A stretch of DNA of 64,000 nucleotides from assembly GCA_965218795.1 (NCBI GenBank), contig OZ244653.1, positions 4,608,001-4,672,000 on the forward strand. Reading direction: 5' to 3'. Positions within the stretch are counted from its first letter, which is position 1, and the number at the start of each line of letters is the position of its first letter. Positions 3,396 to 55,417 of this stretch are shown piece by piece. This DNA comes from a bacterium. GTDB taxonomy: Bacteria; UBA8248; JACPRG01; G963555815. The notes under the pieces are model-generated. The model ran no database searches and was not told the origin of the DNA. It was given only the letters and a program-made list of their open reading frames with translations. The position numbers were made by a program, and so were the translations under genes.

Positions 3396-4593
3396 TTACT
3401 TCCCACCCAACTTCCGAAGCCTCCTCCTCGCGCTGAGAAGCCGTTTCTCATCTGTCAGGTGTTTCGTTCGTCATGTACGTCTCCTCCCCGTCCTTCGTGG
3501 TCTTGATCACCAGGCGCCAGAGCTCTCCGTCCTCCTCCAGAAAACCGATGGCCGACCGCGCCTTCTCGGCCGACCGAAACACCTCCCCTCGATCCAGCAC
3601 GCGCTGAACCCTCAGCCAGTCCTCCGGGCCGAAGTCCGCGAAGCGCGCGTGAGACCTCGCCGTCTCGCTCGATAGCCGCAGCGTCCTTGACCGCCCGCGG
3701 ATCGCGCCCAGAATCCTCTTGGGCACCACGGCCAACGGCCAGCTCCCGGCCTCCTTCCCGCCCAGAAAATCCGCAAGCCCCGGGTTGCCCGCGAAACTCC
3801 GGGCCGCGGCCCGGGCCAGATCCTCGGGCGCCGCGTCCATCTTCTCGATCGCCTGCTCCAGGGCCTCGCCGACCCTTCCCACACGGCCCACGTTGTGGTC
3901 CCATCCGGGATCGAGGCCCACGGGGATATGCCTCATTTCGCCGGTCCGCTTGTTCACCCATTCCCGGGTTTTGCCGGCGTTGCTCGGGACGTCCGTCACC
4001 TCGTAGCCGTACCGCTCCAGGTCGTCGTCGCCAAGCTGCTGGACGATGCACCGGCAGCCCCATCCGTTGGGCGGATAGTGGGTTTGCCAGAAGGGGTGAT
4101 CCACCGGCAGCACCGTCCCGTGCCAGCCCAGGTGCTCTTCCCGCGTCCGCTCGTCGGTCACGGCCACGTAGCGCAGATACGGAAGGTCCGCCTTGACGCG
4201 CTGGATCCGCTCCCACCGGCCCGCGCCGTAAGAGGCCCGCAGGTTGGCGTCGAAGATCGTCCGCAAACGGTGGGGGGAGCCGACTTGAACGATCCGGGTC
4301 TTTTTGGTCAGCGGGTCATATATCGGTTCACGGCCCCACCAGCCGCGCTTCACCAGCAACGGCTCGAGCTCGCTGCGGAAGGTATCAAGCGTGATCCCAT
4401 CGGATATGGCCCGGTCCACGGCCTTCCGGATGTCCGTGAGGATGTCCAGGTCCATGGCCTTGGCCACGGTGAAGGCCCGGGCGTGCAAGGCCGCGTCAGC
4501 GTCCTGCCAGGCGAACGTGATCTTGCGGCCCTTCTTGCGGAAGCGCCTCACCGCCTCAACGGGCGGGACGTTCAGGATTTCGGGGAGCGGCAT
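3396..4593 (-). CDS. Mu gp30/F-like (MuF) phage head morphogenesis protein with C-terminal PBECR2-like nuclease domain; frameshift near 3' end
   Basis: AFTVAKAMDLDIL, LRTIFDANL, HPFWQTHYPPNGWGCRC are MuF motifs. The C-terminal LRLSSET..H...WLRVQRVLDRG...VIKTTKDGEETY resembles PBECR2. The ORF stops at 3448 but a +1 frame continues to TAA at 3396. Confidence 0.85.
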
Positions 4594-4621
4594 GGGTCAA
4601 TCACCACATGGATAGGGATGA

Positions 4622-4713
4622 ACATGGATAGACAGGATAGACAGGATAGACAGGATGAAAATTACAAATTTCTGTTTTTCTTTTCCCATCCTGTGCATCC
4701 TGTGCATCCATGT
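4622..4713. repeat. REP-like inverted repeat built of 9-bp tandem units
   Basis: ACATGGATAG(ACAGGATAG)2 ACAGGATG, AT-rich spacer, then CATCCTGTG CATCCTGTG CATCCATGT. Confidence 0.75.
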
Positions 4714-4724
4714 CTGGTCTCCGG

Positions 4725-5546
4725 TCAGGGCTTCGCCGGGTCCCATACGATCGTCGCTATCTGCTCTTTGGTCAGCTTCGCCCGGTAGTGCTTCCGGTGG
4801 CGCTTGAGGTGAACAATTACCTTTCCGTTGATCTCAATCGGCGCGCTTTCCAGCACCGGATCGCCCCACACATGAAGCCAGCCCCACGGCGAAAGCATCA
4901 CAACCGGCTTACTACCGCCCTTGCGGTAAACAATCCCGTACTTGCTGGGCTGGCAATACACCGGTTTCCACCAGCACAGCCGCCTCTTTCGTGCAAATTC
5001 CACGGTCAGCGCGTAAAGAAGCGGTTCCTTTTCGGCTTCGGCCAGGCCGTCGTCTCCGGAGATCGCCGGTTTTCCCTCCGCGCCCTCAAGCGCCAGGTCG
5101 ATCATGTCGCCCACGGTTGTTTTGTAATACTGATTTCCGCCTTTTTTGTACCACCAGAACCGCAGGCTTCGGACCTTCGGCCCCGCCTTTCTGAGCCGGT
5201 CGCGCAGGGCGGCGGCCCCGTCGTGCTTGAGGCGCTTGCTCCACGCCTTCTTGGTCAACTCCCGGTTGAACTTTCCATTCGCCCCGAGGATAGGTATGGC
5301 GTCGGACAGGGCGGCGGAGTACAGGACGTTCCCGATCTTCCTGCAGTTCCCTCCGAAGCGGTCGAAGCGGTCATGGACCATCCACAGATCGCCGTCGGCA
5401 TTGTACTCGTACAAGTAGCCGCCGCCCGACAGGCTGGCATTCGGCTCGGGAGACCAGATCGGCAAATGGCCCTTGAACTGAAAGCCCCGGCTGAGCATGT
5501 TCCAGCGGAGGATCATATTAGAAACACCAAGTGTAGATTTTCCCAT
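4725..5546 (-). CDS. Hypothetical basic protein inserted between portal and MuF
   Basis: ATG at 5546 with GAGG RBS, 17 nt after the portal stop; 273 codons, K/R/W-rich; no motif recognised. Confidence 0.65.
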   Translation of the reverse strand: MGKSTLGVSNMILRWNMLSRGFQFKGHLPIWSPEPNASLSGGGYLYEYNADGDLWMVHDRFDRFGGNCRKIGNVLYSAALSDAIPILGANGKFNRELTKKAWSKRLKHDGAAALRDRLRKAGPKVRSLRFWWYKKGGNQYYKTTVGDMIDLALEGAEGKPAISGDDGLAEAEKEPLLYALTVEFARKRRLCWWKPVYCQPSKYGIVYRKGGSKPVVMLSPWGWLHVWGDPVLESAPIEINGKVIVHLKRHRKHYRAKLTKEQIATIVWDPAKP

Positions 5547-5563
5547 GTCAACCTCTGTCCGTT

Positions 5564-6520
5564 CTACGCTTCCCCGTCTGGATCGTCGGCGTTCTGTAGG
5601 CCAGCCCGGCCGGACAGCCAGGCGCTGAATGCGTTGGCCCGTACCCGCAGCGCCAGGGCTTCGTCGTCGAGCTGCTCCGCCAGGCCGCCGAAAGCCTCGT
5701 TGAAGTCCTCCAGGGTTTCGGCTTCGGCCGCCGCCGCAAGGATCGGCTCGATGATCGGGCCGGTCAGCTGCTCCCAATCGTTCGCCGCGTCGACCGCCGC
5801 GTCGCCAAGCGGATCGGCCGTTGTGTCGCCCTCGCGGGCCGCGCCCTGAAGGGCAGTACGCAGCGCCGGTTCTTGGTTCCCCGGCGCCGGTGGCGGATCC
5901 GGCGCCGGTTCCCATTCGCCGCCGTATACGGCCTCGACGTGCGCCTGCGTGGGCTTGAGGCCGGTCGTCTCGGAAATGATCCGCTCCCGTTCGGCCCGTT
6001 TGTCCAGGTCCTCGGGCGGTTCGGCGTCCCGCCGTATCCGGGGGATCGCCGCGCCGGGAAAATTCCACTCCGTCAGCCACCTTGAGATCGTGTGGTTCAA
6101 AGCGTCGTCCAGCATGTGGGCGTCCGCCGCGATCACCTCGTCCCGCACGTCCTTCTGGATCTCGGCCGTCCCCTTCCAGGGGCCTTGATCCGTGGTGGAG
6201 CTTTGGCCCAAAAGCGTCGTCGTAATGGCGCTGTCCAGGTACTTCACGAACACCTCGAAATCCGCGCCCGTCCTCCGGGCGGATTCCATAAGCTCGATGT
6301 CCTGCCCCTCCGGGAGCGCTACGCCGGAGCCCACCGAAAGGCCCTTGATCAGTTCCAAGAGCTTGTCAATCTCCTCCTGATTCGCGCCCTTGCGGTATGT
6401 GCCCTTGGGCGTGGGAGAACCGTACTTGTCAAGCGAAACCGCCCAAAACTTCAGGCCGTTCCGCTTTAGCCATACCGGCCAGTAGCACCAACGCGCCAGG
6501 CCGGGGCCGTGAGGGATGTC
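5564..6520 (-). pseudogene. Mu gp29-like (DUF935) portal protein, 5'-truncated
   Basis: The frame extends upstream of the tracked ORF: DIPHGPGLARWCYWPVWLKRNGLKFWAVSLDKYGSPTPKGTY...LLGQSST...WNFP. The N-terminal half is absent. Confidence 0.85.
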
Positions 6521-6735
6521 TGCCCTGCCGACAGAAAGAATCGGACCCCCACCGCTGGTAGGCCGGGCATCTTGCCCGGCATTGAGGACAAGCAGGCGGC
6601 TTGGGAACGGTCAAACCATCTCGAATACCCTGGACGAATGAATAGTCTCACAGTTCCATTTCCCGGCTGTCCCCTCTTTGAATTCCGGCCCCCCTTTTTC
6701 ATAGGATCCCAACTGAACATTTCAGAATTTTGGCA

Positions 6736-6793
6736 TTGACAGGGGAAATTGGGTATGTCATTTATAGATATATCATAAGGATATCTCTATGAT
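6736..6793 (+). promoter_or_regulatory. -35 box and palindromic candidate GntR operator
   Basis: TTGACA at 6736-6741; imperfect palindrome ATCATAAGGATATCTCTATGAT (6772-6793) just upstream of the GntR gene. Confidence 0.45.
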
Positions 6794-6804
6794 TTTCCTC
6801 TGGT

Positions 6805-7539
6805 ATGGAAGGGTCAGGTGTGTTTGCGGAAAGGCCCGAAGCCGCTGAATCCATCAAGGACAGAGTCTACGCCAGCCTCAAGCAGGACCTGATTTCGGGC
6901 GTTTTTTCTCCGGGGGAGATCCTTCAGGAGAAGGAATTGGCCCGGTCCTTCGGCGTGAGCAAGACTCCGGTTCGGGAGGCGCTTTCAGAGCTCGTCAAAG
7001 ATCGCTTTGTCAAGCTCCTGCCGCGAAAAGGCTACCTCGTCGCCCCTGTCGATCCCCAGGAGGTCGTTGAAAACCTCGAGCTTCGGGTCATTCTTGAATG
7101 CGCCGCCGTTGAATTGGCGGCCCGGCGGATTTCCGCCGAGGACCTGAACGAGTTGGAAAGCCTGATTCTCCCTCAGCCGCCCGCCGGCGATCGGTTGAAA
7201 GACAACGACCAGCTCGGAGCGTACCCCCGCACCAATATCCAGTTCCATCGAAGGCTGGCCGCCGCCTCGGGCAATCGCTCATTGGCGCGGGCGATCACGA
7301 AGGTCCTGGAGGACCTTCTCAGGGTGATTTTCATCAGCTACTCCCTGCCCGATCTGGAAGAGACCGGGAGCGATCATGTGGAACTCGTGGATGCCCTGAG
7401 GGATCGCGACGGTGATCGGGGCAGAAAAGTCATGGAGCGCCATCTCCAGGTCACGAGGCAGCGCCTGCTGGGCGCCTTGTGGGGCGGGAAGTCCCGGCGT
7501 GAGGAGGAAGACGCAGGGTTGACGGAGGCGGCTTCATGA
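6805..7539 (+). CDS. GntR family transcriptional regulator (FCD domain)
   Basis: wHTH EKELARSFGVSKTPVREAL; FCD motifs NIQFHRRLAAASGN and DH..LVDAL. Confidence 0.93.
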   Translation: MEGSGVFAERPEAAESIKDRVYASLKQDLISGVFSPGEILQEKELARSFGVSKTPVREALSELVKDRFVKLLPRKGYLVAPVDPQEVVENLELRVILECAAVELAARRISAEDLNELESLILPQPPAGDRLKDNDQLGAYPRTNIQFHRRLAAASGNRSLARAITKVLEDLLRVIFISYSLPDLEETGSDHVELVDALRDRDGDRGRKVMERHLQVTRQRLLGALWGGKSRREEEDAGLTEAAS

Positions 7540-9335
7540 GCCGGCGGGTGACTCTCACCGTGGATGTCCTCGTCGTGGGGGCGGGTTTGGCCGGACTACG
7601 CGCGGCGGCCGAGGCCCGGCGATTCGGGGCCAAGGTCCTGTTGGTGGACAAGGGCCTCACAGGCCTTAGCGGAAACAGCGCGTTTGCCGGGGGCGGCTTC
7701 AAAACCTGTCTGCCGGGTATGGATACCCTCATCGAGAAGCAGTATCTGACCCCCGAGGGGCATTTTCAGGACACGATCCAGTACGGCGACTACATGAGCG
7801 AGCAGCCTCTGGTGGAGGCGCTGACCATCGAGGCGCCGGCGAGGGTCCTCGAGCTTGAGGACGTCGGGGTCAAAAACTTCATGTCCCTCTGTACGCAAGG
7901 ATCATCCGAGCACGGGGGCTATGACGTGACCAAGGCCTTCGCCTCCAGCATCAAGACCCAGAAAGTGAAGACGCGGGTGAACACCATCCTCATCGAGCTG
8001 CTGATGGAGGAAGGAGAGGTCGTCGGGGGTCTCTTTTTCAGCTTTTTCAACGAGAAGTTTCTTGAGATTCGGGCGAAGAGCGTCATCTTGACGACGGGGG
8101 GCGCGGGTGCATCCTTTGCCCGCAATAATGTCTCATCAGCCATCATCGGCGACGGCTACGCCCTGGCCTACGAAGCCGGAGCGGAGCTCATCGGAATGGA
8201 GTTCGTGATGTTCGATCCCTACATCCTGGATGAGCCCGGCCTGCCCATGTGGTACGTCCTCCCCTGTTTTGCAAGGTTTTACGGCAAGCTGGTCAATGCA
8301 AACGGCGAGGCGTTTCTACCCGACTATCTCAGGGTAGTGGGCAGCATGGACGATCCGTTCCCGGTCCGGTACGGGGCACTGCCCCCCGACGTTCGGGAAA
8401 CCATCTCTCGGGCCATCGCGACCGAGATTCACGAAGGGCGGGATGAGGATGGGGCGGTCTTTCTGGATTGCCGGGATGTTCCCGAGAGGTACTGGGAGGA
8501 GGACATCCCGGGCAGACACAACCGCGACGCTATCCTCCGAAAGTTTCCGATCCGCGAGAAATTGATGCGGGTGATCCCCGGCGCCATCACGAATCTGGGC
8601 GGAATTCACATCAACGATCGCTGCGAAACCAGTGTCACCGGCCTTTACGCGGCGGGAGAAGCCGCGGGTCTCGTGCACGGGGCTAGGCGCCTGGGCGGAA
8701 ACGCCCTGACCGATTGTCTCGTGTTTGGCGCGAGGGCCGGCCGACAGGCGGCGGAGCGGGCCCGGAACGGGTCGATTCGGACGGTTCCCGAAGAGCGGAT
8801 GCGGGAGTCCATCCGTGCCGTCACCCGGCTTCTGGAACGGGATTCTACGCCCGAAGGCGATCCGGATGAACTGGTGCGAGACCTGAAACGAATCGCTTGG
8901 GAAGGGATCGGCGTCATCCGGTCCGAAGACGGCCTCACCCGGTGCCTGGAAGCCCTGGAGGAGGTCAAGCTGACCCGAATGCCGAAGTTGTTCGCGCCGA
9001 GCGCCCGAAAACTTCGTGCGGCACTCGAGGCCCGATTCATGCTGATTTCGCATGAGGTGACCGCCCGGTCCTCATTGGCGCGCGCCGAAAGCCGCGGGAC
9101 GCATTACCGGGAGGACTGCCCTGAGATCGACAACGAGCGGTTCCTGAAGAATTTTGTCATCCGGAAGGGAAAGGAATACATGGAAGAGGCCGAAGTCTCC
9201 ATTCCGGTCACGCGGGTTCCGCTTCCTGCACAGCGCCATCGATCCTTTTCGGATCCGGCCGCGCAGGCCAGCCATCCCACGACCACGCGGGGCGGAGATT
9301 TGATCTGGATGAGAGAGGGAGCGCCGGTGGGATGA
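7536..9335 (+). CDS. FAD-dependent oxidoreductase, Sdh/Frd/AprA/NadB flavoprotein superfamily (copy 1)
   Basis: DVLVVGAGLAG, GDGYALAYEAGA, GLYAAGE, HGARRLGGNAL, ESRGTHYREDCP. Confidence 0.9.
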   Translation: MSRRVTLTVDVLVVGAGLAGLRAAAEARRFGAKVLLVDKGLTGLSGNSAFAGGGFKTCLPGMDTLIEKQYLTPEGHFQDTIQYGDYMSEQPLVEALTIEAPARVLELEDVGVKNFMSLCTQGSSEHGGYDVTKAFASSIKTQKVKTRVNTILIELLMEEGEVVGGLFFSFFNEKFLEIRAKSVILTTGGAGASFARNNVSSAIIGDGYALAYEAGAELIGMEFVMFDPYILDEPGLPMWYVLPCFARFYGKLVNANGEAFLPDYLRVVGSMDDPFPVRYGALPPDVRETISRAIATEIHEGRDEDGAVFLDCRDVPERYWEEDIPGRHNRDAILRKFPIREKLMRVIPGAITNLGGIHINDRCETSVTGLYAAGEAAGLVHGARRLGGNALTDCLVFGARAGRQAAERARNGSIRTVPEERMRESIRAVTRLLERDSTPEGDPDELVRDLKRIAWEGIGVIRSEDGLTRCLEALEEVKLTRMPKLFAPSARKLRAALEARFMLISHEVTARSSLARAESRGTHYREDCPEIDNERFLKNFVIRKGKEYMEEAEVSIPVTRVPLPAQRHRSFSDPAAQASHPTTTRGGDLIWMREGAPVG

Positions 9336-9622
9336 GCACGACTGGCGCGACCGGAACCAAGCGAAGGCCGGACCGGTCCGGATGGAAGCCGCCGCCCTAC
9401 GTTTCGTCGCCGGCGCTCGAAATTGATATCGACAAAGACACCTGCACCGGGTGCGACCTGTGCGTCATCGCCTGCCCGACCGATTGCCTTGAGCTGGACA
9501 CGGAGGTCCAGGTGGCTTACGTGGTGAGGTTGGACGCCTGTATCATCTGTTACAGTTGTGAAGAGGTCTGCAAGCCGGACTGCCTTCACGTACATCTCGA
9601 TACGCGGGGGAGAGAACCGTGA
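9332..9622 (+). CDS. 2x[4Fe-4S] ferredoxin subunit (AprB-like)
   Basis: CTGCDLCVIACP and CIICYSCEEVC; 4-nt overlap with the flavoprotein. Confidence 0.9.
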   Translation: MSTTGATGTKRRPDRSGWKPPPYVSSPALEIDIDKDTCTGCDLCVIACPTDCLELDTEVQVAYVVRLDACIICYSCEEVCKPDCLHVHLDTRGREP

Positions 9623-10482
9623 TGGATCAGGACGATCCGGAAGCGAAACCGGTTCAAATTCGGACGACCCAGCCTTCGGCCTGGGTCCGGATGATCTATC
9701 CGGTGGTGGCCGTCATCCTCGCCATCGCGCTCTGGGCGTTGGCGGTCCACTGGTTCAAGGTGCCGGAGTATATTCTGCCGGCCCCGAAGGCGGTCTTCCA
9801 TGCACTGGTCGAAAAGTACATGATCCTTCTCCGGCACAGCGGCGCAACGGTGAATGCGACCCTTGGCGGATTGGTGCTGAGCGTCGTATTCGGCGTGCCG
9901 TTCGCGATGCTGCTGGTCTGGTCGAAGACGCTCGAGCGGGCGATTATGCCCCTGCTGGTTTTCTCGCAATGTTTCCCGAAGATCGCTATTGGTCCTCTGC
10001 TGATTGTGTGGTTCGGTTGGGGGATTTTACCGAAGGTCTTGATTAGCTTCATCATCGCTTTCTTTCCCATCGTCATCCAAACGGCCCTGGGGCTGAAATC
10101 GGTGGAAAACGACGAGCTGGACCTGATTCGGATCATGTCGCCGAGCGCCTTGCAGGTCTTTACGAAGATCCGGGTTCCCAATGCGCTCCCTCATTTCTTC
10201 GGCGGGCTCAAGGTGGCGGTCACGCTCTCGCTCATTGGGGCCATCGTCGGGGAGTTCATCGGCTCTGACCGCGGCCTCGGATACCTCCTGCAATACGCGA
10301 ACACGGAACTCGATACGGAACTTCTGTTCGCGACGCTCGTTCTCCTGATGGTGGTCGGCGGAATCCTCTTCCTGGCGGTTACGAGGCTGGAGAAGTGGCT
10401 GTTGCCCTGGCACGTAGCGGTCCGTGACGAAAAGCAAGGAGGAGTTCGAATTTCCGAGGAGGCTGTAGAGAGCACAGCCTGA
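9619..10482 (+). CDS. NitT/TauT-family ABC transporter permease
   Basis: Hydrophobic helices; PKIAIGPLLIVWFGWG, KIRVPNALPHFFGGLK, GAIVGEFIGSDRGLG. Confidence 0.92.
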   Translation: MMDQDDPEAKPVQIRTTQPSAWVRMIYPVVAVILAIALWALAVHWFKVPEYILPAPKAVFHALVEKYMILLRHSGATVNATLGGLVLSVVFGVPFAMLLVWSKTLERAIMPLLVFSQCFPKIAIGPLLIVWFGWGILPKVLISFIIAFFPIVIQTALGLKSVENDELDLIRIMSPSALQVFTKIRVPNALPHFFGGLKVAVTLSLIGAIVGEFIGSDRGLGYLLQYANTELDTELLFATLVLLMVVGGILFLAVTRLEKWLLPWHVAVRDEKQGGVRISEEAVESTA

Positions 10483-10537
10483 TTGCAGAACCCCGGAGCA
10501 TTGGGTTCCGGGGGATCCAAAAAGGAGGGGCGGAGCA

Positions 10538-11542
10538 ATGAAAGCACGGATGTGTCGGAAGCGGTTTATAAAGGCCCAAATGGCGATTCTTGCGGTGTTA
10601 TTCGTCTTGGCCGTCGGGTTGCCCGCCCCGGGCGGCGCGGCCGATGAGGTATCCCTGAGGCTGGACTGGAAGATCTACGGGACCCACGCGCCTTTCTTCA
10701 TGGCGGCGAAAAAGGGGTTCTACCGTGCGGGGGGGATGAAGGTCAAGATCGGGGAAGGCACCGGTTCGAGCAGTGTGGTCAAGCTGATGGGGGCCAAGAA
10801 CGACACCTTTGCCTTTGCGGCCGGCGTGAGCACCCTCCAGGGGGTCACGAAGGGAATCCCCGTCAAGTCGGTCTTCGGGATCATGCAGAAAAGTCCGCTG
10901 GCCATCATGTCGCTGACCAAGTCGAACCTCAAGACACCGAAGGATTTGCTGGGAAAGTCAGTCAGCACGAGCGGGAAGGGATCGGGGACGGCCCTCTTTG
11001 CCGCGTTCCTGAAAACCAATCAGGTGAATCCCTGCAAGGTGACACTGGCCGCCCTGGGACGGTCCGGTAAGTCGAGGGCCCTGCTCGCCGGAAAGGTGGC
11101 CGGGATGATCGGCTACAGCGTCACCGAAGTTCCCAGCCTCGAAGGAAAGGGGGCGAGGGTGCGCGCAATGCATCTCGGTGACTGGGGAATGAACGTTGTA
11201 GCGAACGGAATCATCATTAACACCGAGACCGAGAAAACCAACCCCAAGCTCATCCGTCGGTTTCTGAAGGCGGTGAAGAAGGGGATCGTCTACGCCAAGG
11301 CCCATCCGAAAGAGTCGGCGGATTTTTTGAAAGAGCGATTCCCCCACAAGAGGCGGGCCGTCCTGGGCAAGGAGCTCAAGTGGACGTTCAGCCTCCTGGT
11401 CAGCAAGGCCACTGAGGGTAAGCCGTTGGGATGGCAAGCCGATTCCGACTGGGCCAGGACCCAAAGTGTTCTTAAGAAAAACAACCTGATCAAGAAGACC
11501 ATGCCTCTCAGGAATTACTTCACGAACGCCTACATTCCCTGA
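10538..11542 (+). CDS. NMT1/THI5-like ABC substrate-binding protein
   Basis: Signal peptide; LRLDW...HAPFFMA..KGFY...GEGTGS; C-terminal YFTNAYIP. Confidence 0.9.
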   Translation: MKARMCRKRFIKAQMAILAVLFVLAVGLPAPGGAADEVSLRLDWKIYGTHAPFFMAAKKGFYRAGGMKVKIGEGTGSSSVVKLMGAKNDTFAFAAGVSTLQGVTKGIPVKSVFGIMQKSPLAIMSLTKSNLKTPKDLLGKSVSTSGKGSGTALFAAFLKTNQVNPCKVTLAALGRSGKSRALLAGKVAGMIGYSVTEVPSLEGKGARVRAMHLGDWGMNVVANGIIINTETEKTNPKLIRRFLKAVKKGIVYAKAHPKESADFLKERFPHKRRAVLGKELKWTFSLLVSKATEGKPLGWQADSDWARTQSVLKKNNLIKKTMPLRNYFTNAYIP

Positions 11543-11563
11543 GCGGGCGACGTATCGGATCGC

Positions 11564-11597
11564 GCGGGGAGAGAAGGGCCGATCCTTCTCTCCCCGC
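11564..11597 (+). other. Intercistronic stem-loop after the binding-protein gene
   Basis: GCGGGGAGAGAAGGG-ccga-TCCTTCTCTCCCCGC with no U-tract; probably an mRNA-stabilising hairpin. Confidence 0.6.
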
Positions 11598-11610
11598 AGA
11601 TGGAATCGGG

Positions 11611-12522
11611 ATGACGCCAATGCCCGGTGAGTCTTCCGGAAAAAATCAGGCGGATTCGGCCATCGAGTTCTCCGGCCTGCGCATGGATTACCTCGACGGT
11701 GGAGAAGCGCTTTGCGCCCTGAAGGACATCGACTTTCAAGCGTCGGAGGGTGAGTTTGTTTCCTTTGTGGGGCCGAGCGGCTGCGGGAAGACCACGCTGC
11801 TGAAGATCACGGCCGGGCTCCTGTCGCCCACGGCTGGTGATGTCCGCATCCAGGGACACAGCGTGCGCGGTCCCACGCAAGATGTCGGCTTCGTCTTTCA
11901 AAGCGCGGTCCTGCTGAGGTGGCGGACCATCCTGCGCAACATCCTGTTGCAGGTGGAGGTCCGGGGGTTGGAGAAGCAGGAATTCACCCGTCGCGCCCGG
12001 GAGCTTCTCGAATTGGTCGGACTGGAAGGATTCGAGGACAAATATCCTTATCAGTTGTCCGGGGGAATGCAGCAGCGAGCGGCTATCTGCAGAGCCCTCA
12101 TCCACGATCCTCCGCTTTTGCTCATGGATGAGCCGTTCGGCGCACTGGACGCCTTGACGCGGGAGCAGATGCACCTGGAGCTGCAGGACATCTGGATGCA
12201 AAGCGGGAAGACCGTCCTGTTCGTCACCCACAGTATTCCCGAATCCATCTTTCTATCCGACCGAGTGGTGGTGTTCTCGGCCCGCCCGGGGCGCATCCGG
12301 GAAGTGGTCGAGGTGGATCTGCCACGCCCGCGGGAGGTGGGTATCGAGGCGGATGTCCGGTTCGGCCGGCTGATCAACCATATCCGCGGGTTGCTCGAGA
12401 CGACTCGTCCGAGGCGCCGCCCCCAGCTGGGCAAGGCCGTTCTCTCCGAATCCCGTACTGATGCGGAGGCACCCGATTCGGACGAATCTCCCCTGCGAAT
12501 CGTTCGCGGAGGCGAGCCATGA
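11611..12522 (+). CDS. NitT/TauT-family ABC transporter ATPase
   Basis: GPSGCGKT, LSGGMQQR, LLMDEPFGALD, FVTHS. Confidence 0.94.
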   Translation: MTPMPGESSGKNQADSAIEFSGLRMDYLDGGEALCALKDIDFQASEGEFVSFVGPSGCGKTTLLKITAGLLSPTAGDVRIQGHSVRGPTQDVGFVFQSAVLLRWRTILRNILLQVEVRGLEKQEFTRRARELLELVGLEGFEDKYPYQLSGGMQQRAAICRALIHDPPLLLMDEPFGALDALTREQMHLELQDIWMQSGKTVLFVTHSIPESIFLSDRVVVFSARPGRIREVVEVDLPRPREVGIEADVRFGRLINHIRGLLETTRPRRRPQLGKAVLSESRTDAEAPDSDESPLRIVRGGEP

Positions 12523-13028
12523 GTCGGAAATCCGGGCCGGTTCGAATTTCCGCGGCGCTGCGCGACTCGGGCGTACGGTTCATCGTGGGACTGCCCGAGA
12601 CCTGGCTGGCCCCCCTCCTGCGCCACCTGAAAGACCATCCCGATTTCGTGGATGTCCCCGTGGCCAGTGAGGATGAGGGCGTTGGCGTCTGCGCCGGCCT
12701 GGAGCTGGGAGGACAGGGCGCGGCACTGTTGATGCAGAACACGGGACTGCTCGCCTCGGCCAACGCCCTGACAACCCTCCCGCTCAAGCACCGGATTCCT
12801 CTTTTGATGCTGATCAGTCATCGGGGCGCCCCCGGGATGCCGGATGACCGGGACTACCACCTATTGGAGGGAGAGGTGACGCGTCCCGTGCTGGACGCGC
12901 TTCGGATCCCCGCATTTGAGGTTCAGCGGCCGGAGGATGCTGAAAAAATCGGAGCGGCCCGGGAGCGGGCCGAGCTCGGGAAGCAGCCGGTGGCGGTGCT
13001 CCTGGCGCGGGAGGCCTTGGTTCCGTGA
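12519..13028 (+). CDS. comD: Sulfopyruvate/phosphonopyruvate decarboxylase alpha-subunit-like (ThDP N-domain)
   Basis: VGLPETWL, SEDEGVGVCAG, LLMQNTGL...NAL, IPLLMLISHRG. Confidence 0.8.
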   Translation: MSRKSGPVRISAALRDSGVRFIVGLPETWLAPLLRHLKDHPDFVDVPVASEDEGVGVCAGLELGGQGAALLMQNTGLLASANALTTLPLKHRIPLLMLISHRGAPGMPDDRDYHLLEGEVTRPVLDALRIPAFEVQRPEDAEKIGAARERAELGKQPVAVLLAREALVP

Positions 13029-13600
13029 GCTCCGGGATGAAGCGCATGGATTGCCTGGCCGCGCTTGCCGAGCACGTGAGCGACGAGCTCGTGGTGGTCG
13101 CCGTGGGCGGACTGATTGACGAATGGCACCACCTTCGTCCGAGCGATTTGAATTACTACTCGGGCGGGATGGGTCTGGCCTCTTCCATCGGTCTGGGGCT
13201 GAGTCTGGCGCTCCCTGAGCGGAGGGTCATTATTCTGGACGGCGACGGCGCGCTCTTGATGAATCTGGGCTCCCTGACGACGGCGGGTCACCAGCGTCCC
13301 CGGAACCTCCTGCACTTGGTGTTCAACAATGGTACGTATGAATCATCCGGAGGATTCGCGCTGCCGGGAGCGGACGGCCTCGGGTTTGATGCTTTCGCGC
13401 GCGCGGCGGGGATTGAGGATGCGCGTGAGGTGACGGACCTTCAGGAATGGCGCGAAATGCTGCCGGGCCTGCTGAGCGCGCCGGGTCATGTCGTGCTCGA
13501 CCTGAAGGTTGGGCCGGGTGACCCGGTTCCGTCCATGACGGAGGACAAACTGGAGCGCCGATTCCGGTTTCAGCGGGCGCTGATGGAGGCGGCGCGGTAA
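13025..13600 (+). CDS. comE: Sulfopyruvate/phosphonopyruvate decarboxylase beta-subunit-like (ThDP-binding)
   Basis: GMGLASSIGLG, DGDGALLMNLGSL...VFNNGTYESSGG. Confidence 0.8.
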   Translation: MSSGMKRMDCLAALAEHVSDELVVVAVGGLIDEWHHLRPSDLNYYSGGMGLASSIGLGLSLALPERRVIILDGDGALLMNLGSLTTAGHQRPRNLLHLVFNNGTYESSGGFALPGADGLGFDAFARAAGIEDAREVTDLQEWREMLPGLLSAPGHVVLDLKVGPGDPVPSMTEDKLERRFRFQRALMEAAR

Positions 13601-13645
13601 CCGATATCCCCATCCGCCGAATGGGCCAAGGGATTCATTGAGCCG

Positions 13646-15421
13646 ATGAAAAGGCCGTGGGTTCAGCGAGAGACGGATGTTCTGGTGATCGGGACCGGTC
13701 TGGCCGGCCTGCGGGCGGCCATCGAGGCGCGGCGGTTTGGCCAGCGGGTGCTCCTGATCGACAAAGCCCTGATCGGCATCAACAACAATACGGCCATGGC
13801 CGGCGGCGGCTTCAAGGCGGCGCTCCCGAACTTTCTCGACACGAGCGTCGAAAAACAGTACGACACTCCGGATGAACACTTCCACGACACCGTCGAATAC
13901 GGAGAGTTCCTCGGCGACCAGGCCTTGGTCGAAATTCTGGCGATCGAGGCTCCCGGCAGAATTTTGGAGCTTCAGGAATTCGATATCCCCCACTATGAGG
14001 CGCTCTGCACCTACGGTCTGCCCAAGCCGATTGAATTGGCCGACGGCTCCACGAGCGTCGATGCCAACCCCTCCCGCGGGGGGCAAGTCGTGACCAAAGG
14101 GCTCGCTGAGGAGTGTAAACGCCTTGGGGTCCGCATGATGCCGGGGTGCGTTCTTCTGGACCTCCTGGTTGGGAAGGAGGGCGTGACGGGGGCGCTGCTG
14201 TATCGGATCTATCAGGGGGACTTTATCGTTTGCCGCGCCGCGTCAACGATTCTCGCCACCGGGGGGGCGGGGGAGCTGTACCGGATCAATTACACCGCCA
14301 ATGTCACGACGGGCGACGGGTACGCGGCCGCCTACCGGGCGGGCGCCGAGATGGTCGACATGTCGTTCGCCATGTTCTCCCCCCACACGATGATGGAGCC
14401 CGGCCTTCCAATGTGGTATCTCCTCCCCTGCACGGCCAGGCTTCACGCGGTGTACCGAAACGGGAGGGGCGAGGCGTTTCTGGATAGTTTCCTCACACCG
14501 ACAGGGGAACCGACCATTCATTTCCAGAGACGCTATGGGGAGCTTTCAACCGATGTGAGGGAGATCATCTCGCGGGCCATCGCGATTGAGATCTTCGAAG
14601 GCCGGGGCGACGGGGATTCCATCTGGCTCGATTTCCGCGAGGTTCCCGAGGAGCTTTGGGACGCCGACCTTCCCGGGCAGTACGATCTGCGGTGTCTGCT
14701 GAGGGGGTTCGACTGGAAAAACAAGCCCATCCGAATCTCCCCGGGTGCGATTACGCATCTGGGGGGAATCGGAATCAACGAATGGAGTGAGACCAATCTC
14801 CGCGGGCTGTACGCCGCCGGGGAAGCGGCGGCTCCAGTTCACGGCGCGCGGCGCAGGGGTGGGAACGCTTTTTCGGAGTGCCTTGTGTTCGGAACCCGTG
14901 CGGGAAGGGCGGCCGCAGAGCGCGCGCGCGACAACCCACGTCTCATCTCCAGTCCGGACTGGGGCCGCGGGGCGGTGGAGCAGAGGATTGCGGAGGTCGG
15001 GAGGTGGGACCGGACGCCCGATCACGAAGGCGACCCTGCCCGGATCCGCGCGGACCTGCAGCATACGATGTGGGAAAATGCGGGCCCGCTCCGCTCTGGA
15101 GAGCGGTTGGACAAGTGCCTGGCCGATTTGGAAGAACTGCGCCGGGATGGTCTTCCCCGTCTATCGGCTCGGACTCCCTTTGAAGTCAAAGCGGCGGTCG
15201 AGGCGGTGAATCTGGTCGAGGTGGGGGAGATCGTGACCCGCTCCGCCCGGTTTCGGACGGAAAGCCGGGGATGTCATTTCCGCACGGATTATCCGAAGAC
15301 GGATCAGGAGCGTTGGATCTGCCACGACGTGATCGTTCGGGGACGGGAGCCCTTCAAGAAAGAAGTTGACGTGACACGGATTCCTCTTCCCGTCGCAGCC
15401 GGGAGCACTGTGGGTGACTAG
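13646..15421 (+). CDS. FAD-dependent oxidoreductase, Sdh/Frd/AprA superfamily (copy 2, paralog of 7536-9335)
   Basis: DVLVIGTGLAG, TGDGYAAAYRAGA, GLYAAGE, ESRGCHFRTDYP; shares EPGLPMWY.LPC with copy 1. Confidence 0.9.
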   Translation: MKRPWVQRETDVLVIGTGLAGLRAAIEARRFGQRVLLIDKALIGINNNTAMAGGGFKAALPNFLDTSVEKQYDTPDEHFHDTVEYGEFLGDQALVEILAIEAPGRILELQEFDIPHYEALCTYGLPKPIELADGSTSVDANPSRGGQVVTKGLAEECKRLGVRMMPGCVLLDLLVGKEGVTGALLYRIYQGDFIVCRAASTILATGGAGELYRINYTANVTTGDGYAAAYRAGAEMVDMSFAMFSPHTMMEPGLPMWYLLPCTARLHAVYRNGRGEAFLDSFLTPTGEPTIHFQRRYGELSTDVREIISRAIAIEIFEGRGDGDSIWLDFREVPEELWDADLPGQYDLRCLLRGFDWKNKPIRISPGAITHLGGIGINEWSETNLRGLYAAGEAAAPVHGARRRGGNAFSECLVFGTRAGRAAAERARDNPRLISSPDWGRGAVEQRIAEVGRWDRTPDHEGDPARIRADLQHTMWENAGPLRSGERLDKCLADLEELRRDGLPRLSARTPFEVKAAVEAVNLVEVGEIVTRSARFRTESRGCHFRTDYPKTDQERWICHDVIVRGREPFKKEVDVTRIPLPVAAGSTVGD

Positions 15422-15644
15422 GTCGGTTCACATCAGCGTTCTCGAGACCTGCGTGGATTGCGCCCTGTGTGTCCTGGCCTGTCCCGTCGATTGTCTCGGT
15501 TTTGATCAGAGGGAAAAGCGGCTTTTGGTATTAGCGGAAGACCCCTGCATCGTCTGCCTGAATTGCGAGGACGTTTGCCCGGTGGACGCCATCCGGATCG
15601 GTCTGGATGCCTATTTGCCGGAGTCGCGCCCCGTCGAAGTTTGA
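15414..15644 (+). CDS. 2x[4Fe-4S] ferredoxin subunit (copy 2)
   Basis: CVDCALCVLACP and CIVCLNCEDVCP. Confidence 0.88.
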   Translation: MTRSVHISVLETCVDCALCVLACPVDCLGFDQREKRLLVLAEDPCIVCLNCEDVCPVDAIRIGLDAYLPESRPVEV

Positions 15645-15741
15645 GCGGGGCTCTCGCTCCCGGCAATCTCTCCCTTCATTTCTTCCAAGTTTGAACTCTT
15701 CCCGGCGGTCGGATTGACGCCGCTTCCAGGGAATCCTGCGC

Positions 15742-16737
15742 TCAAAGCTTCAGAAGCCTCGCGGCGTTGCCCCCCAGGATATTGTCCCGCGCCGGTCCCT
15801 CCGGGACGACCCGCTTGACTTGCTCTGCACAGCCGAAATCCGCCATGTCGAAGGGGTAGTCGCTCCCCAGGTAGACATGATCCTCACCGACGGTCTCGAT
15901 CAAGAACTTCAGGGCAGGGTCCCAATGGGTGATGTTGTCGAACCAGACCTGTTCCAGGTAGGCGCTCGGTTCCTTCGGCGCGAGCTTTCGCGCTTCCGGA
16001 CGCTCTCGGTAGCCGTGGTCCAACCGCCCGCGGATGAAGGGGTACTGGCCGCCCGCGTGGACCAGGCAGACCTTGAGCTTGGGGTGCCGCTCGAACACGC
16101 CCCCCAGCAGCATTCGCCCGATGGCGATGGTGGTATCGAGCGGGTTCCCAATCAGATTCGTCAGATAGTAATCCTGGTAACGCTCATGTCCGGCGACGTC
16201 GTGCGGATGGAGGAACAGCGGGACATCCAGCTCTTCCAGCTTATCGTAGAAGGGCTCATAAGCGGGGTGATCCAGATCCCTGCCGCCGTAATTGGTTTGA
16301 ATCATCGTTCCTTTGTGACCCAAGGTCTGTACCGCGTATTCCAGCTCGGCAATTCCCATGTTGACATCCTGCAGGGGAATCGTCGCAAATGCCCGGAACC
16401 GGTCCGGGTGCCGGGACTCCATCTCCGACATGGCCTCGTTTTGGATGCGCGAGAGGCGGGCGGCGTCTTCGCCAACGGCAAACGCGTGGTAGGACAGGGG
16501 CGAGGCCGCGAGGACGGACAGGTCGATGCCCATCCGATCCATATCGGTGAGCTTGATCTTGACATCCATCAGGCCCGGTTTGAATTCGGCCGATTTCTCG
16601 CGGTTGACCGCTCTCGATTCCTCCCCCTGAAAATCGACTCCGGCGCCCGTCGGATAGCGGGACTTGATCTCGGCCGCCAATGATTCCGCTTCCGCTACGA
16701 GAATATGAGAGTGCGCATCTATCACCGGTTGGCTCAT
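15742..16737 (-). CDS. Amidohydrolase_2 family protein (ACMSD-like decarboxylase/hydratase)
   Basis: IDAHSH, FLHPH, VHAGG, LGSDYPFD; start reassigned to ATG 16737 (AGAGGA RBS). Confidence 0.9.
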   Translation of the reverse strand: MSQPVIDAHSHILVAEAESLAAEIKSRYPTGAGVDFQGEESRAVNREKSAEFKPGLMDVKIKLTDMDRMGIDLSVLAASPLSYHAFAVGEDAARLSRIQNEAMSEMESRHPDRFRAFATIPLQDVNMGIAELEYAVQTLGHKGTMIQTNYGGRDLDHPAYEPFYDKLEELDVPLFLHPHDVAGHERYQDYYLTNLIGNPLDTTIAIGRMLLGGVFERHPKLKVCLVHAGGQYPFIRGRLDHGYRERPEARKLAPKEPSAYLEQVWFDNITHWDPALKFLIETVGEDHVYLGSDYPFDMADFGCAEQVKRVVPEGPARDNILGGNAARLLKL

Positions 16738-17172
16738 CTGGGTTCCTCTCTGACCTTGGCCTGTAGAACCGTTTCTCGGCAATCGCCCGAGGGCGGTTAC
16801 GCCGGGGATCGGTTGACGGAAAGATTCGTTGAAGGCCCCTTATGGTCATCGGGTTGAAGAACATGATCCAGTGTCGTCCGGAACCACTCGTCTCTTGTCT
16901 TTGCGTTCCGCAGCTTTCGCGTTGAGGGACACTCTGCCGGGAGCGTCGTGATGGGGCCTGCGGGCTGCCAAAGGAATCGAACGGAAATTATATACAATAG
17001 TGCCCAAGGACGCTAAGCCTTCTTGGGCTTCGGGGTTTCCTGCCGCGGTGCGCGCCGCCCCTGACAGCAGCTTGCGCCAGAGCGGTCGGCGCGGTCGGTA
17101 TCCTCAGGTCTTCAGTCTCCTCCGTTTCCTCGGTGAGGTGCCGACAAGACGGCCATGCTGGAGAGAAGAGGC

Positions 17173-18094: not shown

Positions 18095-18979
18095 ATGGAC
18101 CTCGTTTCTCTGATTGACAGATTCCCTTGTGACGACAAGTGCAGGGATTTCCTTGAAGATATCCGCTGGCCTCATGGACCAGCCTGCACCCGTTGCGGCG
18201 ATATGAGCGTCTTCGAAATTGACCGGCGCAATCAGTGGGAATGCAGATCATGCCGCTACCAGTTCAGTGTCACGTCCGGGACCATCATGCACGATTCCCA
18301 TCTTCCGCTCCGCAAGTGGTTTCTCGCCATCTACATGATGTGCGAATCCAAGAAGGGCATTTCGGCCAATCAGGTCAAGCGGACCCTGGGGATAACGTAC
18401 AAGACGGCATGGTATCTGTGCCATCGAATCAGGGAAGCGATGGGAAACGAACCCTTTGAGGGTCCGACATTGGTTGGTGTGGTCGAAGTCGATGAAACGC
18501 TTGTGGGCGGCAAGAAAAAGGGCAAGGGCCGCGCGTACAAGGGAAACAAGGTATGGGTCGCCGGAGCCATCCAGCGCGGCGGCAAAGTCCGCGTTGAGCG
18601 AATCTCGGACGTGAAGCGGCACACCATCCACGGCTTCATCCAGCGTGCCGTGAAGGACGAAGCCGAGGCCATCTATACGGACGAACTGAAATCCTACCTG
18701 GGGATTGCCGACCACAACACGCGCCACGAGACGGTCAATCACTCGGAAGAACAGTGGGTCATCGGAGACGTTCACACAAACTCCATTGAAGGGGTCTGGA
18801 GCCTGTTCAAGCGGTCTCTGATGGGTGCGTTCCACAAGATGAGCGCAAAGCATATGGACCGTTACCTCGAAGAGCTTGAATGGCGGTTCAACAACCGGGA
18901 TAACCCCAACATCTTCAACGAGACCCTCCGCCGGATCATGAACACCGAGCCCCTCGAATACAGGAAGTTGGTCGCATAA
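18095..18979 (+). CDS. IS1595-family transposase
   Basis: Zn ribbon RWPHGPACTRCG..WECRSC; VEVDET, IYTDE, VHTNSIEGVWSLFKR, RYLEELEWRFNNR. Confidence 0.96.
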   Translation: MDLVSLIDRFPCDDKCRDFLEDIRWPHGPACTRCGDMSVFEIDRRNQWECRSCRYQFSVTSGTIMHDSHLPLRKWFLAIYMMCESKKGISANQVKRTLGITYKTAWYLCHRIREAMGNEPFEGPTLVGVVEVDETLVGGKKKGKGRAYKGNKVWVAGAIQRGGKVRVERISDVKRHTIHGFIQRAVKDEAEAIYTDELKSYLGIADHNTRHETVNHSEEQWVIGDVHTNSIEGVWSLFKRSLMGAFHKMSAKHMDRYLEELEWRFNNRDNPNIFNETLRRIMNTEPLEYRKLVA

Positions 18980-25079: not shown

Positions 25080-25141
25080 TTCATCGCCTCCTTTGCTTGA
25101 GTCCCCTCGGGTATCGAAGATGGATCATTTCATTCGAGATT

Positions 25142-25960: not shown

Positions 25961-26395
25961 GGCAAGCAGTATGCGCAATGGGGTTCTGGGGGCGGCCCGC
26001 AAGTTCCCGCGTTGGAGTCGGATTCTCGTTCAATCTTGTTTTGGGTGCAGCCGCGGAATTTCGATTGACGCGATCCCATCTTGAATGCCGGGTTGCCGGG
26101 CTGTCAAGCGGCTGGAAGGCTTCGTGATCCTTGATTTTGAGGGTAGCGCTCTGGGGGAATATTTTGGAGGGAACGTGCCTCTGCGACTTCACGGTGGCTG
26201 GAGGCCAATCAGAGCATCAGATATCGACAACTCATATGCGCGGCGAAAACGGAGCAGGCCGTACCTGCATGCACTGATTGAGCCGTGCTGCATGAACAGA
26301 TTGAGTATGATTAGATCGTTGCGTCCGGCGAAACCGCGGCAGGCCGTGCCCGCCACCTTGGATACAACGTTCTTCAAGAATACAAACCTGGAACA

Positions 26396-55049: not shown

Positions 55050-55417
55050 GCACGTTCTGCAATAACCCCTTCGGTAACACCAGTTGCACAATCCTGCCGC
55101 GTATCGCAACCGGGCGCGACGATGCCCGGGAGACCGAACTGGCGGGAGGCAGCCTCGAGGAACTGGACCGCGAGCAATTGCCGCCCTGCGTGGACGAACA
55201 TGCCACCATCATGGCGCCGTTCGCGTTGCCGATGGTCAAGAACCATCCCTACGCGAAATCGGCCGAACAGACGCACGGTCATTTCGCCCCCACCCCTTAC
55301 ACGATCCAGCCCTATTCAGCGGCGGCCATTCCGTTCCACTGGATGCTGAAAGAGCAGGCCGAGGGCAACGAGGAGTTCGGCGTTCCGAGCAGGGCCGAGG
55401 ATCTCAAGCTGGGCTAT

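Follow-up and report, generated by a model that had tools for sequence, protein, structure and literature searches.

A conserved ten-gene operon with two flavoprotein–ferredoxin pairs, an ABC importer and a split thiamine diphosphate enzyme: a candidate catabolic route for a small organic acid

Our analysis concerns a 64,000-nucleotide stretch of DNA from a marine bacterium (GenBank assembly GCA_965218795.1, contig OZ244653.1, positions 4,608,001 to 4,672,000, lineage UBA8248), hereafter the window, and within it an operon of ten genes on the forward strand (window 6805-15644). The operon combines a GntR-type regulator, two flavoproteins (Flv1 and Flv2) each followed by a small ferredoxin (Fd1 and Fd2), an ATP-binding cassette (ABC) importer and a two-subunit enzyme of the thiamine diphosphate (ThDP)-dependent type. 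Flv1 and Flv2 fall into a separate clade of the superfamily that includes succinate dehydrogenase (SdhA), fumarate reductase (FrdA) and L-aspartate oxidase (NadB), and the complete gene order recurs in two further genomes. The reading that we favour, at a probability of roughly 0.55, is that of a regulated, mobile catabolic operon, in which an imported small acid would pass through two flavoprotein–ferredoxin redox steps and the resulting 2-oxo acid would be decarboxylated by the split ThDP enzyme. In the following, G000 denotes the genome that carries the window.

The flavoproteins share 46% identity, and the best NCBIfam match of both is the thiol:fumarate reductase model TfrA (NF004900), with 321.5 bits for Flv1 and 330 for Flv2 against a cut-off of 718. 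Scores on the SdhA/FrdA subfamily model TIGR01812 (261.8 and 295.9, cut-off 567.3) and on the NadB model TIGR00551 (197.1 and 236.6, cut-off 452.75) are likewise too low, and all NCBIfam equivalog cut-offs are missed by both proteins. The initial annotation had called the pairs AprAB/Frd-like; both sequence and fold of the flavoproteins are nearer to Sdh/Frd than to AprA, the flavoprotein subunit of adenosine 5′-phosphosulfate (APS) reductase. The aprA model reaches only 21.5 bits on the C-terminus of Flv2 and does not match Flv1 (cut-off 641.75); among solved structures, E. coli SdhA is the closest in sequence (1.7e-56), and the match to AprA in the PDB is limited to residues 485-560. In a Foldseek search with an AlphaFold2 model of Flv2 (predicted local distance difference test score, pLDDT, 92), FrdA and SdhA were the best matches with a template modelling (TM) score of 0.82, whereas AprA and the methanogen 3′-phosphoadenosine 5′-phosphosulfate (PAPS) reductase (8a8o) reached 0.73-0.74. 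PDB 9lay is described as a Chloroflexus Sdh, and a literature search for PDB 9u8q gave no description. Matches in the ESM Atlas were generic “FAD-binding protein” clusters only.

A phylogeny of 51 rows supports this placement (quick IQ-TREE run, LG+G4, support by the Shimodaira–Hasegawa-like approximate likelihood ratio test, SH-aLRT, only). The rows, which we chose ourselves, comprise Flv1 and Flv2, 19 of 120 listed protein matches, 20 of 78 genome loci plus one locus from Myxococcota (L012), six paralogues from G000, E. coli K-12 SdhA, FrdA and NadB, and one AprA that scores over the cut-off (from genome G051); TfrA and PAPS-reductase sequences are not among them. Flv1, Flv2 and 24 relatives (26 of the 51 rows) form a clade with an SH-aLRT support of 100, which we call the EPGLPM clade after a shared motif. 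The three E. coli enzymes group outside it, together with a G000 paralogue at 4210 kb that retains the canonical His residues, and AprA also lies outside, on a very long branch. Thus the two flavoproteins are non-canonical members of the Sdh/Frd/NadB superfamily outside its characterised clades, as had been supposed.

The residue pattern points in the same direction. In an alignment with E. coli FrdA, the position of the His that binds flavin adenine dinucleotide (FAD) covalently (H44 in the literature numbering of FrdA) is occupied by N in Flv1, Flv2 and all nine operon-type rows. The position of FrdA H232 carries D in Flv1 and S in Flv2, that of H355 carries I in both, and the pair T244/E245 is replaced by L/P in both; in FrdA, His232 and His355 bind the substrate and Thr244-Glu245 form the hinge. 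The losses of the covalent-FAD His, of the His of the QFHPT motif and of the first His of HYxMGG, all read earlier from the sequence, are therefore confirmed by alignment. Both active-site Arg residues, the catalytic R287 and the carboxylate-binding R390 of FrdA, are kept (R287/R385 in Flv1 and R305/R403 in Flv2) and are invariant in 62 aligned relatives. The motif EPGLPMWYxLPC, first described as private to the two proteins, is present in both but is not wholly their own: EPGLPM is common to the whole clade, with E251, L254, P255 and M256 each kept in at least 90% of the 62 relatives, and WYxLPC is confined to a subclade of Flv1, Flv2 and three relatives (P0012, P0013 and P0031).

Flv1 and Flv2 are not redundant, since 38 alignment columns are fixed differently between eight Flv2-type and seven Flv1-type sequences and the two have thus diverged in a conserved way. 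These columns include the active-site-motif positions S245/D227 (Flv2/Flv1; the position of FrdA H232), H247/Y229 and R404/L386 (the residue after the second Arg). The two proteins probably act on different substrates or steps, to judge from this pattern. The relatives of Flv2 comprise at least 120 clusters at 90% identity; the 120 listed are all 37-100% identical to Flv2, and the few organism-named clusters among the matches listed belong to Bacillota, Chloroflexota, Betaproteobacteria and Nitrososphaerales. A scan of metagenome contigs with patterns derived from an alignment proved too unspecific: the 80 loci that it kept are only 29-37% identical, lie outside the clade and were not used.

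Both ferredoxins contain two motifs of the CxxCxxCxxxC type, and Fd1 carries a conserved N-terminal extension of about 30 residues. An alignment of nine ferredoxin sequences shows no variation at eight Cys positions, and eight of the nine sequences also keep a further Cys, the fourth of the second motif. Neither protein is an AprB (Fd1 29.7 on the aprB model, cut-off 135.65), and a three-cluster partner of the SdhB type is absent from the operon, which encodes only dicluster ferredoxins of 76-96 amino acids. The pairing of a flavoprotein gene with a small ferredoxin gene, which recalls APS reductase, extends beyond the operon: a small ferredoxin gene adjoins the flavoprotein gene at all six distant clade loci examined, from Dethiobacter (L030), Rhodospirillaceae (L032), Betaproteobacteria (L033 and L034), Nitrososphaerota (L035) and Myxococcota (L012, where the neighbour is an open reading frame, ORF, with nine Cys). 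A tblastn search found no ferredoxin beside 69 more distant flavoproteins (28-33% identical), although short ferredoxins can escape tblastn.

Structure prediction also favours binding of Fd2 to Flv2. A predicted complex of Flv2, Fd2, FAD and two 4Fe-4S clusters scored 0.94 against 0.19 for the best of three controls. In a benchmark, 58 of 80 solved complexes and 2 of 110 mismatched pairs came up to this mark, counts that are only rough here, given our own alignments and the inclusion of small molecules. The runs agreed in at least 99% of contacts, with a partner pLDDT of at least 89. Because Sdh and Apr complexes have already been solved, the result may partly reflect likeness to them. The predicted interface involves residues 41-46 of Flv2, corresponding to the covalent-His loop in Sdh, and residues 253-257, which form the GLPMW part of the clade motif. 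Ferredoxin docking may hence be what the altered hinge of this clade serves.

The gene contexts of distant clade members offer a view of the family beyond the operon. In a metagenome-assembled genome (MAG) of Dethiobacter (L030, 6110-17586), the flavoprotein and ferredoxin genes lie between PyrK/PyrD-like genes, two CoA-transferase subunits, a succinyl-CoA-ligase-like pair and hydantoinase A/B, a cluster that points to another candidate pathway in which this enzyme family may take part. A Nitrososphaerota MAG (L035, 7641-11081) carries a clade flavoprotein, with a frameshift in the record, and a divergent ferredoxin gene, followed by a GltD/DPD-domain-II-like NAD(P)H oxidoreductase, with which members of the family may exchange electrons; luciferase-like proteins and a family III CoA-transferase are also encoded nearby. 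PrpD/MmgE or the transporter gene DctM of the TRAP (tripartite ATP-independent periplasmic) type are found near the betaproteobacterial loci, and an SMP-30-type lactonase beside another distant member. Taken together, these contexts point to carboxylic-acid metabolism with soluble electron carriers, not to sulfur chemistry.

The split ThDP enzyme has the alpha/beta architecture without a middle domain, with a TPP_enzyme_N-type subunit of 169 amino acids and a TPP_enzyme_C-type subunit of 191 amino acids, whose genes overlap by 4 nt. ComDE acts on sulfopyruvate, and no short ThDP enzyme of the ComDE/RhiEF kind is known to have been assigned a substrate other than sulfo- or phosphonopyruvate. 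The name ComDE, used for the pair at the outset, stands at the level of the superfamily but not as a specific assignment. The ComD-like subunit scores 110.3 on TIGR03845 (cut-off 147.95), the ComE-like subunit 119.5 on TIGR03846 (cut-off 221.5), and the two halves reach 84.1 (alpha) and 122.7 (beta) on the Ppd model TIGR03297 (cut-off 312.5), whereas two control methanogen genomes pass the ComD and ComE cut-offs. G000 encodes 11 ComD-like and 12 ComE-like paralogues, none over the cut-offs, and the operon pair ranks second of the 11 and fifth of the 12. Relatives outside orthologous operons are at most 50% identical and have no consistent functional name (“thiamine pyrophosphate-binding protein” at NCBI, varying automatic names at JGI). 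The missed cut-offs, the paralogues and the nameless relatives together reduce ComDE to a superfamily label. Among solved structures, RhiE (9iz3_A, 1.4e-14) and RhiF (9iz3_B, 4.9e-21) are the closest; RhiEF (PDB 9iz3) is reported to decarboxylate phosphonopyruvate, and its homologue ComDE to take part in coenzyme M biosynthesis (PMC12141560). The gene contexts of the 12 ComDE-like loci in G000 are diverse, and their neighbourhoods, based on crude gene calls, gave no recurrent partner beyond ABC components and Amidohydro_2. Elsewhere, this genome encodes a tandem pair of full-length ThDP enzymes (contig C1, 399055-402420, plus strand), which reach 338 and 265 bits with the model for Xsc (cut-off 676).

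The importer was called TauABC-type, which again applies at the superfamily level. The permease (SaoP 120 against a cut-off of 295, TauC 88/342, SsuC 73.8/347) and the ATPase (SaoA 230/360, TauB 223.9/357) score best in the nitrate/sulfonate/taurine-type group of NCBIfam, all below the cut-offs. The binding protein, in contrast, is NMT1/THI5/ThiY-like and not TauA- or SsuA-like: it reaches 65.5 on SsuA_fam (cut-off 163.5) and 17.7 on TauA (cut-off 490), the solved chains closest to it are 4nmy (4e-23), THI5 and ThiY (3ix1), which binds formylaminopyrimidine, and no chain named TauA or SsuA is among its eight solved-chain matches at E<=1e-3. A literature search for PDB 4nmy gave no ligand. The protein begins with a signal-like hydrophobic stretch. 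In G000, tblastn located about 56 places with NMT1-type binding proteins and about 26 with Amidohydro_2, and the organism is one with large paralogous toolkits for small acids.

The layout of the operon is given in Table 1. All ten ORFs lie on the plus strand and show a coding-type signal in the GC content of third codon positions (GC3), and the gene order and coordinates given by the initial annotation agree with our ORF and Pfam analysis. Every domain passes its Pfam gathering score except TPP_enzyme_N of the ComD-like protein (26.4 against 26.8). Translational coupling, postulated for the whole operon, applies to most junctions: six of nine overlap by 4-8 nt, but the other three are gaps of 45-68 nt. 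By Pfam, the ABC permease is the sole membrane protein of the operon, so that no membrane anchor is encoded, just as had been noted. The regulator passes the cut-offs of both the GntR and the FCD families. Its best NCBIfam match, phnR_burk (91.7), is under the cut-off of 271.5, and we therefore assign it to no specific subfamily. Directly before gntR, a promoter-like site overlaps an imperfect palindrome at 6772-6793 (11+11 nt, arms ATCATAAGGAT and ATCTCTATGAT), which is a possible GntR operator as far as its sequence and position suggest. This was the one site in a promoter scan of 6300-16000, not above shuffled sequences (mean 1.6); with the scan at chance level, only its position before gntR is suggestive. 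Terminator-like sites in the operon region were no commoner than in shuffled sequences, and none was found after Fd2.

Table 1. Genes of the operon, neighbouring genes and other features of the window.
Feature	Position in window	Strand	Basis or remark
Mu-like F protein (381 aa) and truncated Mu portal (264 aa)	3448-6358	-	portal matches profile positions 192-335 only
Promoter-like site over imperfect palindrome	6765-6793	+	just before gntR
GntR-family regulator with FCD effector domain	6805-7539	+	Pfam GntR (PF00392) 69.3 bits, cut-off 27; FCD (PF07729) 90.8, cut-off 24.3
Flv1 (flavoprotein 1), 599 aa	7536-9335	+	FAD_binding_2 173.7, Succ_DH_flav_C 63.1 bits
Fd1 (ferredoxin 1), 96 aa	9332-9622	+	Pfam Fer4 families
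ABC importer permease, BPD_transp_1	9619-10482	+	Pfam 103.7 bits
Periplasmic substrate-binding protein, NMT1/THI5-like	10538-11542	+	Pfam NMT1 163.5 bits
ABC importer ATPase	11611-12522	+	Pfam ABC_tran 116 bits
Split ThDP enzyme, N-terminal (pyrimidine-binding) subunit, ComD/RhiE-like, 169 aa	12519-13028	+	TIGR03845, RhiE matches
Split ThDP enzyme, C-terminal (diphosphate-binding) subunit, ComE/RhiF-like, 191 aa	13025-13600	+	TPP_enzyme_C 54.2 bits
Flv2 (flavoprotein 2), 591 aa, Flv1 paralogue	13646-15421	+	Pfam, NCBIfam, alignment
Fd2 (ferredoxin 2), 76 aa, 2x[4Fe-4S] type	15414-15644	+	Pfam Fer4 families
Amidohydro_2 gene	15742-16782	-	convergent to the operon
IS1595-family transposase	18095-18979	+	downstream of the operon
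N6/N4 DNA methylase	20713-21618	-	downstream of the operon
Amine-oxidase-like flavoprotein	23490-25079	-	adjoins the creatininase-family gene
Creatininase-family amidohydrolase	25142-26002	-	
Direct repeat, first copy, 1705 bp	55412-57116		467-aa ORF
Direct repeat, second copy, 1705 bp	59911-61615		identical 467-aa ORF

Comparison with other genomes showed that the association of the ten genes is conserved. The complete order recurs, at 69-85% amino-acid identity, in two genomes (G004 and G006) of another genus in the same family as G000, and in a fourth genome of the same class (G040) a contig begins inside Flv2 and carries Flv2 and Fd2. Thus the operon is present in 4 of 51 genomes and in 3 of the 15 genera of the phylum examined. 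The initial annotation had tied its proposal to flavoproteins outside the characterised clades and to a conserved gene association, and both are what we found. Orthologues of Flv2 (66-84% identity) form eight clusters in the protein collection, four of which share their longest-contig value (165145, 37200, 37403 and 10981 nt) with Flv1 orthologues; a ComE-like orthologue (59%) shares the value 37403. These shared values suggest that the Flv1, Flv2 and ComE-like orthologues lie on the same contigs. Our literature search, which left supplements and most subscription journals outside its reach, found no published description of the operon or the flavoprotein clade.

The flanks of the operon differ among the genomes. 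In G000, the Mu-like genes directly upstream look like a prophage remnant, and a convergent Amidohydro_2 gene, an IS1595 transposase and a DNA methylase follow downstream; the Mu remnant, the transposase and the methylase frame an island-like region around the operon. In G004, two transposases, an HNH protein and a serine recombinase are found downstream. A divergent Amidohydro_1 gene precedes gntR in G004 and G006, and its G000 counterpart is located at about 2.067 Mb, some 2.5 Mb from the operon. From the differing flanks and this distant counterpart, the block from gntR to Fd2 emerges as the conserved unit in variable DNA rich in mobile elements, and the ten genes behave as a horizontally mobile unit. 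The Amidohydro_2 gene was considered as a further operon member and rejected, as it is convergent and not adjacent in G004. Contig C3 of G004 (267613-268452; loci L019/L031) carries a second, truncated Flv2 copy, which starts from residue 308, contains one in-frame TGA and is followed by an Fd2-like gene (83% identity); from its sequence, it looks like a decaying duplicate of the end of the operon.

Near-identical DNA occurs in sequencing runs from eight studies, and one DNA run covers the stretch in full, on two contigs with differences of about 1%. Contigs of 150-313 nt with 0-1 differences, from two RNA libraries labelled as sponge metagenome, cover parts of the genes for the substrate-binding protein, the ATPase, Flv2 and Fd2; in a third run, presumed to be RNA, ComD and ComE are covered as well. 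Over gntR, Flv1, Fd1 and the permease, the RNA libraries contain nothing but a 19-nt piece, which says nothing on the expression of these genes. Since DNA may be present in RNA libraries, the matches are only a hint of transcription.

Under the reading that we favour, the GntR/FCD regulator would control a self-contained operon, and the ABC importer with its NMT1/THI5/ThiY-like binding protein would take up a small organic acid. Two diverged soluble heterodimers, each made up of a flavoprotein of the new Sdh/Frd/NadB superfamily clade with non-covalent FAD and of a 2x[4Fe-4S] ferredoxin, would catalyse two distinct redox reactions at positions adjacent to a carboxylate, by C-N or C-C/C-O dehydrogenation. 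Following the chemical pattern of the superfamily, a hydride would be transferred to flavin N5 with the retained Arg as acid/base, and the electrons would pass from FAD via the first and second cluster to an external soluble partner. The split ThDP enzyme of ComDE/RhiEF architecture would decarboxylate the resulting 2-oxo acid to an aldehyde for general metabolism. The gene content and its conservation, the clade placement, the residue pattern and the adjacency of the ferredoxin genes are observed, and the flavoprotein–ferredoxin complex is a prediction; which way the electrons flow, in what order the steps follow and to which class the substrate belongs are inferred. Several points weigh against it. 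The data single out no particular substrate, and as the operon contains no hydratase, transaminase or aldehyde dehydrogenase, the complete pathway cannot be written from its genes. An electron partner for the ferredoxins is not encoded among the ten genes, and low-potential dicluster ferredoxins would suit the reductive direction as well. Furthermore, the score of the Flv2–Fd2 complex is a model result, the contexts of distant clade members differ among themselves and therefore provide a family-level hint only, and the tree combines a quick method and SH-aLRT support with rows of our choice and a very long AprA branch.

The initial annotation had seen in the operon a pathway for organosulfonates or phosphonates, a substrate class that the data do not carry and that we now consider unlikely, though worth keeping in mind. 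In such a C3 pathway, the aspartate-oxidase-like flavoproteins would oxidise cysteate and/or sulfolactate (or phosphonoalanine/phosphonolactate), and the ComDE/Ppd-like enzyme would decarboxylate sulfo- or phosphonopyruvate to sulfo- or phosphonoacetaldehyde. Cysteate and phosphonoalanine are aspartate analogues, and the characterised short ThDP decarboxylases that are known to us act on sulfo- or phosphonopyruvate. A site without the carboxylate-binding His and, in Flv2, with one Arg more (GARRRGG) could suit a tetrahedral anion, the permease and ATPase fall into the broad nitrate/sulfonate/taurine group, the matching short RNA-library contigs come from runs labelled sponge metagenome, and the nearest solved ThDP relative, RhiEF, is reported to act on phosphonopyruvate (PMC12141560). 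However, the ThDP pair misses the Ppd cut-off and the ComD and ComE cut-offs, the latter two of which the methanogen controls pass, it is one among many paralogues with distant, generically named relatives, and the binding protein is far from TauA and SsuA. Moreover, Xsc was over the cut-off in none of the four operon-bearing genomes, and in G000 the best PhnX match reached 33.6 (cut-off 220), PhnA gave no match at all and no AprA exceeded the aprA cut-off. With Xsc, PhnX and PhnA missing from these searches, the usual fates of sulfoacetaldehyde and phosphonoacetaldehyde were not found, and the Pfam analysis of the operon detected no gene for a sulfite exporter or sulfite dehydrogenase. A bolder version takes the flavoprotein–ferredoxin pairs as founding, functionally distinct members of a large ferredoxin-coupled branch of the Sdh superfamily; their substrates here would be aspartate or malate analogues with a beta-sulfo or beta-phosphono group (cysteate, sulfolactate, phosphonoalanine), which they would oxidise. 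Along with a new split-ThDP subtype, they would form an Xsc- and PhnX-independent organosulfonate or organophosphonate route in a sponge-associated bacterium, and the aldehyde product might even undergo flavin-sulfite chemistry of the APS-reductase type on one of the pairs; we regard this as speculative and rather improbable.

The redox steps could also run in the other direction, with the ferredoxins delivering low-potential electrons that reduce an enoate or an imine in the manner of a soluble fumarate reductase, in an anaerobic reductive or fermentative route. Dicluster [4Fe-4S] ferredoxins usually have low potentials, the top NCBIfam match TfrA is a reductase, and two distant loci carry NAD(P)H-linked input proteins, PyrK-like in L030 and GltD/DPD-domain-II-like in L035. 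Yet the TfrA scores are less than half of the cut-off, none of the ten genes is TfrB-like and the operon contains no electron-input module, whereas an importer and a decarboxylase under GntR/FCD control have what seems to be the usual shape of a catabolic operon; we therefore give this direction a low chance. Sulfur chemistry of the APS-reductase type, in which a flavin N5-sulfite adduct on one of the pairs would allow cleavage or formation of C-S or S-O bonds and, for example, the release of sulfite from sulfoacetaldehyde in place of Xsc, appears very improbable. It would agree with the lack of an Xsc over the cut-off in the four genomes and with a predicted subunit architecture like that of AprAB and the methanogen PAPS reductase, both of them among the structural matches (TM 0.73-0.74), but it conflicts with the marginal aprA and aprB scores, the PDB match confined to the C-terminus, the fold nearer to FrdA/SdhA and the retention of the Arg pair typical of carboxylate substrates. 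Finally, the flavoproteins might simply be divergent Sdh/Frd or L-aspartate oxidase genes in an accidental neighbourhood, as their strong FAD_binding_2 and Succ_DH_flav_C domains and the E. coli SdhA match could suggest. This is contradicted by the missed equivalog cut-offs, the separate clade, the loss of the canonical His residues, the lack of SdhB/C/D-type genes in the operon, the separate canonical-His paralogue of G000 and the ten-gene order kept in three genomes, and we give it hardly any weight.

Apart from the operon, several other loci were recorded. About 56 kb past the end of the window (G000 contig C1, 4727982-4731901, minus strand), two tandem flavoprotein paralogues of the Sdh superfamily form a clade of their own with a support of 100; they are the best matches of G000 to the aprA model, still weak at 57 and 48 bits. 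Within the window, the adjoining creatininase-family and amine-oxidase-like genes (23490-26002) may be a catabolic pair for creatinine or an amine. The exact 1705-bp direct repeats are probably two copies of an insertion sequence.

Overall, the flavoproteins represent a sizeable uncharacterised clade, in which the classical substrate His residues of Sdh are exchanged and a ferredoxin gene replaces the SdhB-type neighbour. Identifying their substrates would extend one of the best-studied flavoenzyme superfamilies by a new type of reaction or, at the least, by a new class of substrate. It would also make it easier to interpret the many genes named “FAD-binding protein” or “sulfopyruvate decarboxylase-like”, which inflate organosulfur predictions for metagenomes of marine and symbiont origin. 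With one regulator, one importer and three enzymes, the operon is a compact test case that could be transferred whole into a laboratory host.

Among known systems, AprAB (1jnr) and the AprAB-like PAPS reductase of Methanothermococcus thermolithotrophicus (8a8o) consist of a soluble FAD subunit and a small 2x[4Fe-4S] subunit without an anchor, and gene adjacency and the predicted complex suggest the same arrangement here. In contrast to AprAB, the operon flavoproteins branch nearer to Sdh/Frd/NadB, with a marginal relation to AprA at the C-terminus only, the ferredoxins are far below the aprB cut-off and no sulfur-metabolism genes accompany the operon. With SdhA, FrdA and NadB, the flavoproteins share the fold (TM 0.82 to FrdA), both domains and the two active-site Arg residues, but they lack the covalent-FAD His, both substrate His and the Thr-Glu hinge. 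Unlike in complex II, the partner is a dicluster ferredoxin instead of the three-cluster SdhB, and there are no anchor subunits. The methanogen thiol:fumarate reductase TfrAB provides the best-scoring NCBIfam model in TfrA, whereas the operon has no TfrB-type gene and its Fe-S partners are the two small ferredoxins only. Like ComDE, which acts on sulfopyruvate, and RhiEF (9iz3), which acts on phosphonopyruvate, the ThDP enzyme has two subunits and no middle domain, but it lies below the ComD, ComE and Ppd cut-offs and has many paralogues in G000. The permease and ATPase group and the NMT1 fold family are shared with NitT/TauT-type importers (TauABC, SsuABC and ThiXYZ), although the binding protein differs from those of TauABC and SsuABC in resembling 4nmy, THI5 and ThiY (3ix1), and all equivalog cut-offs are missed. 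As far as sequence comparison can place them, the enzymes of the operon thus belong to uncharacterised branches of well-known families.

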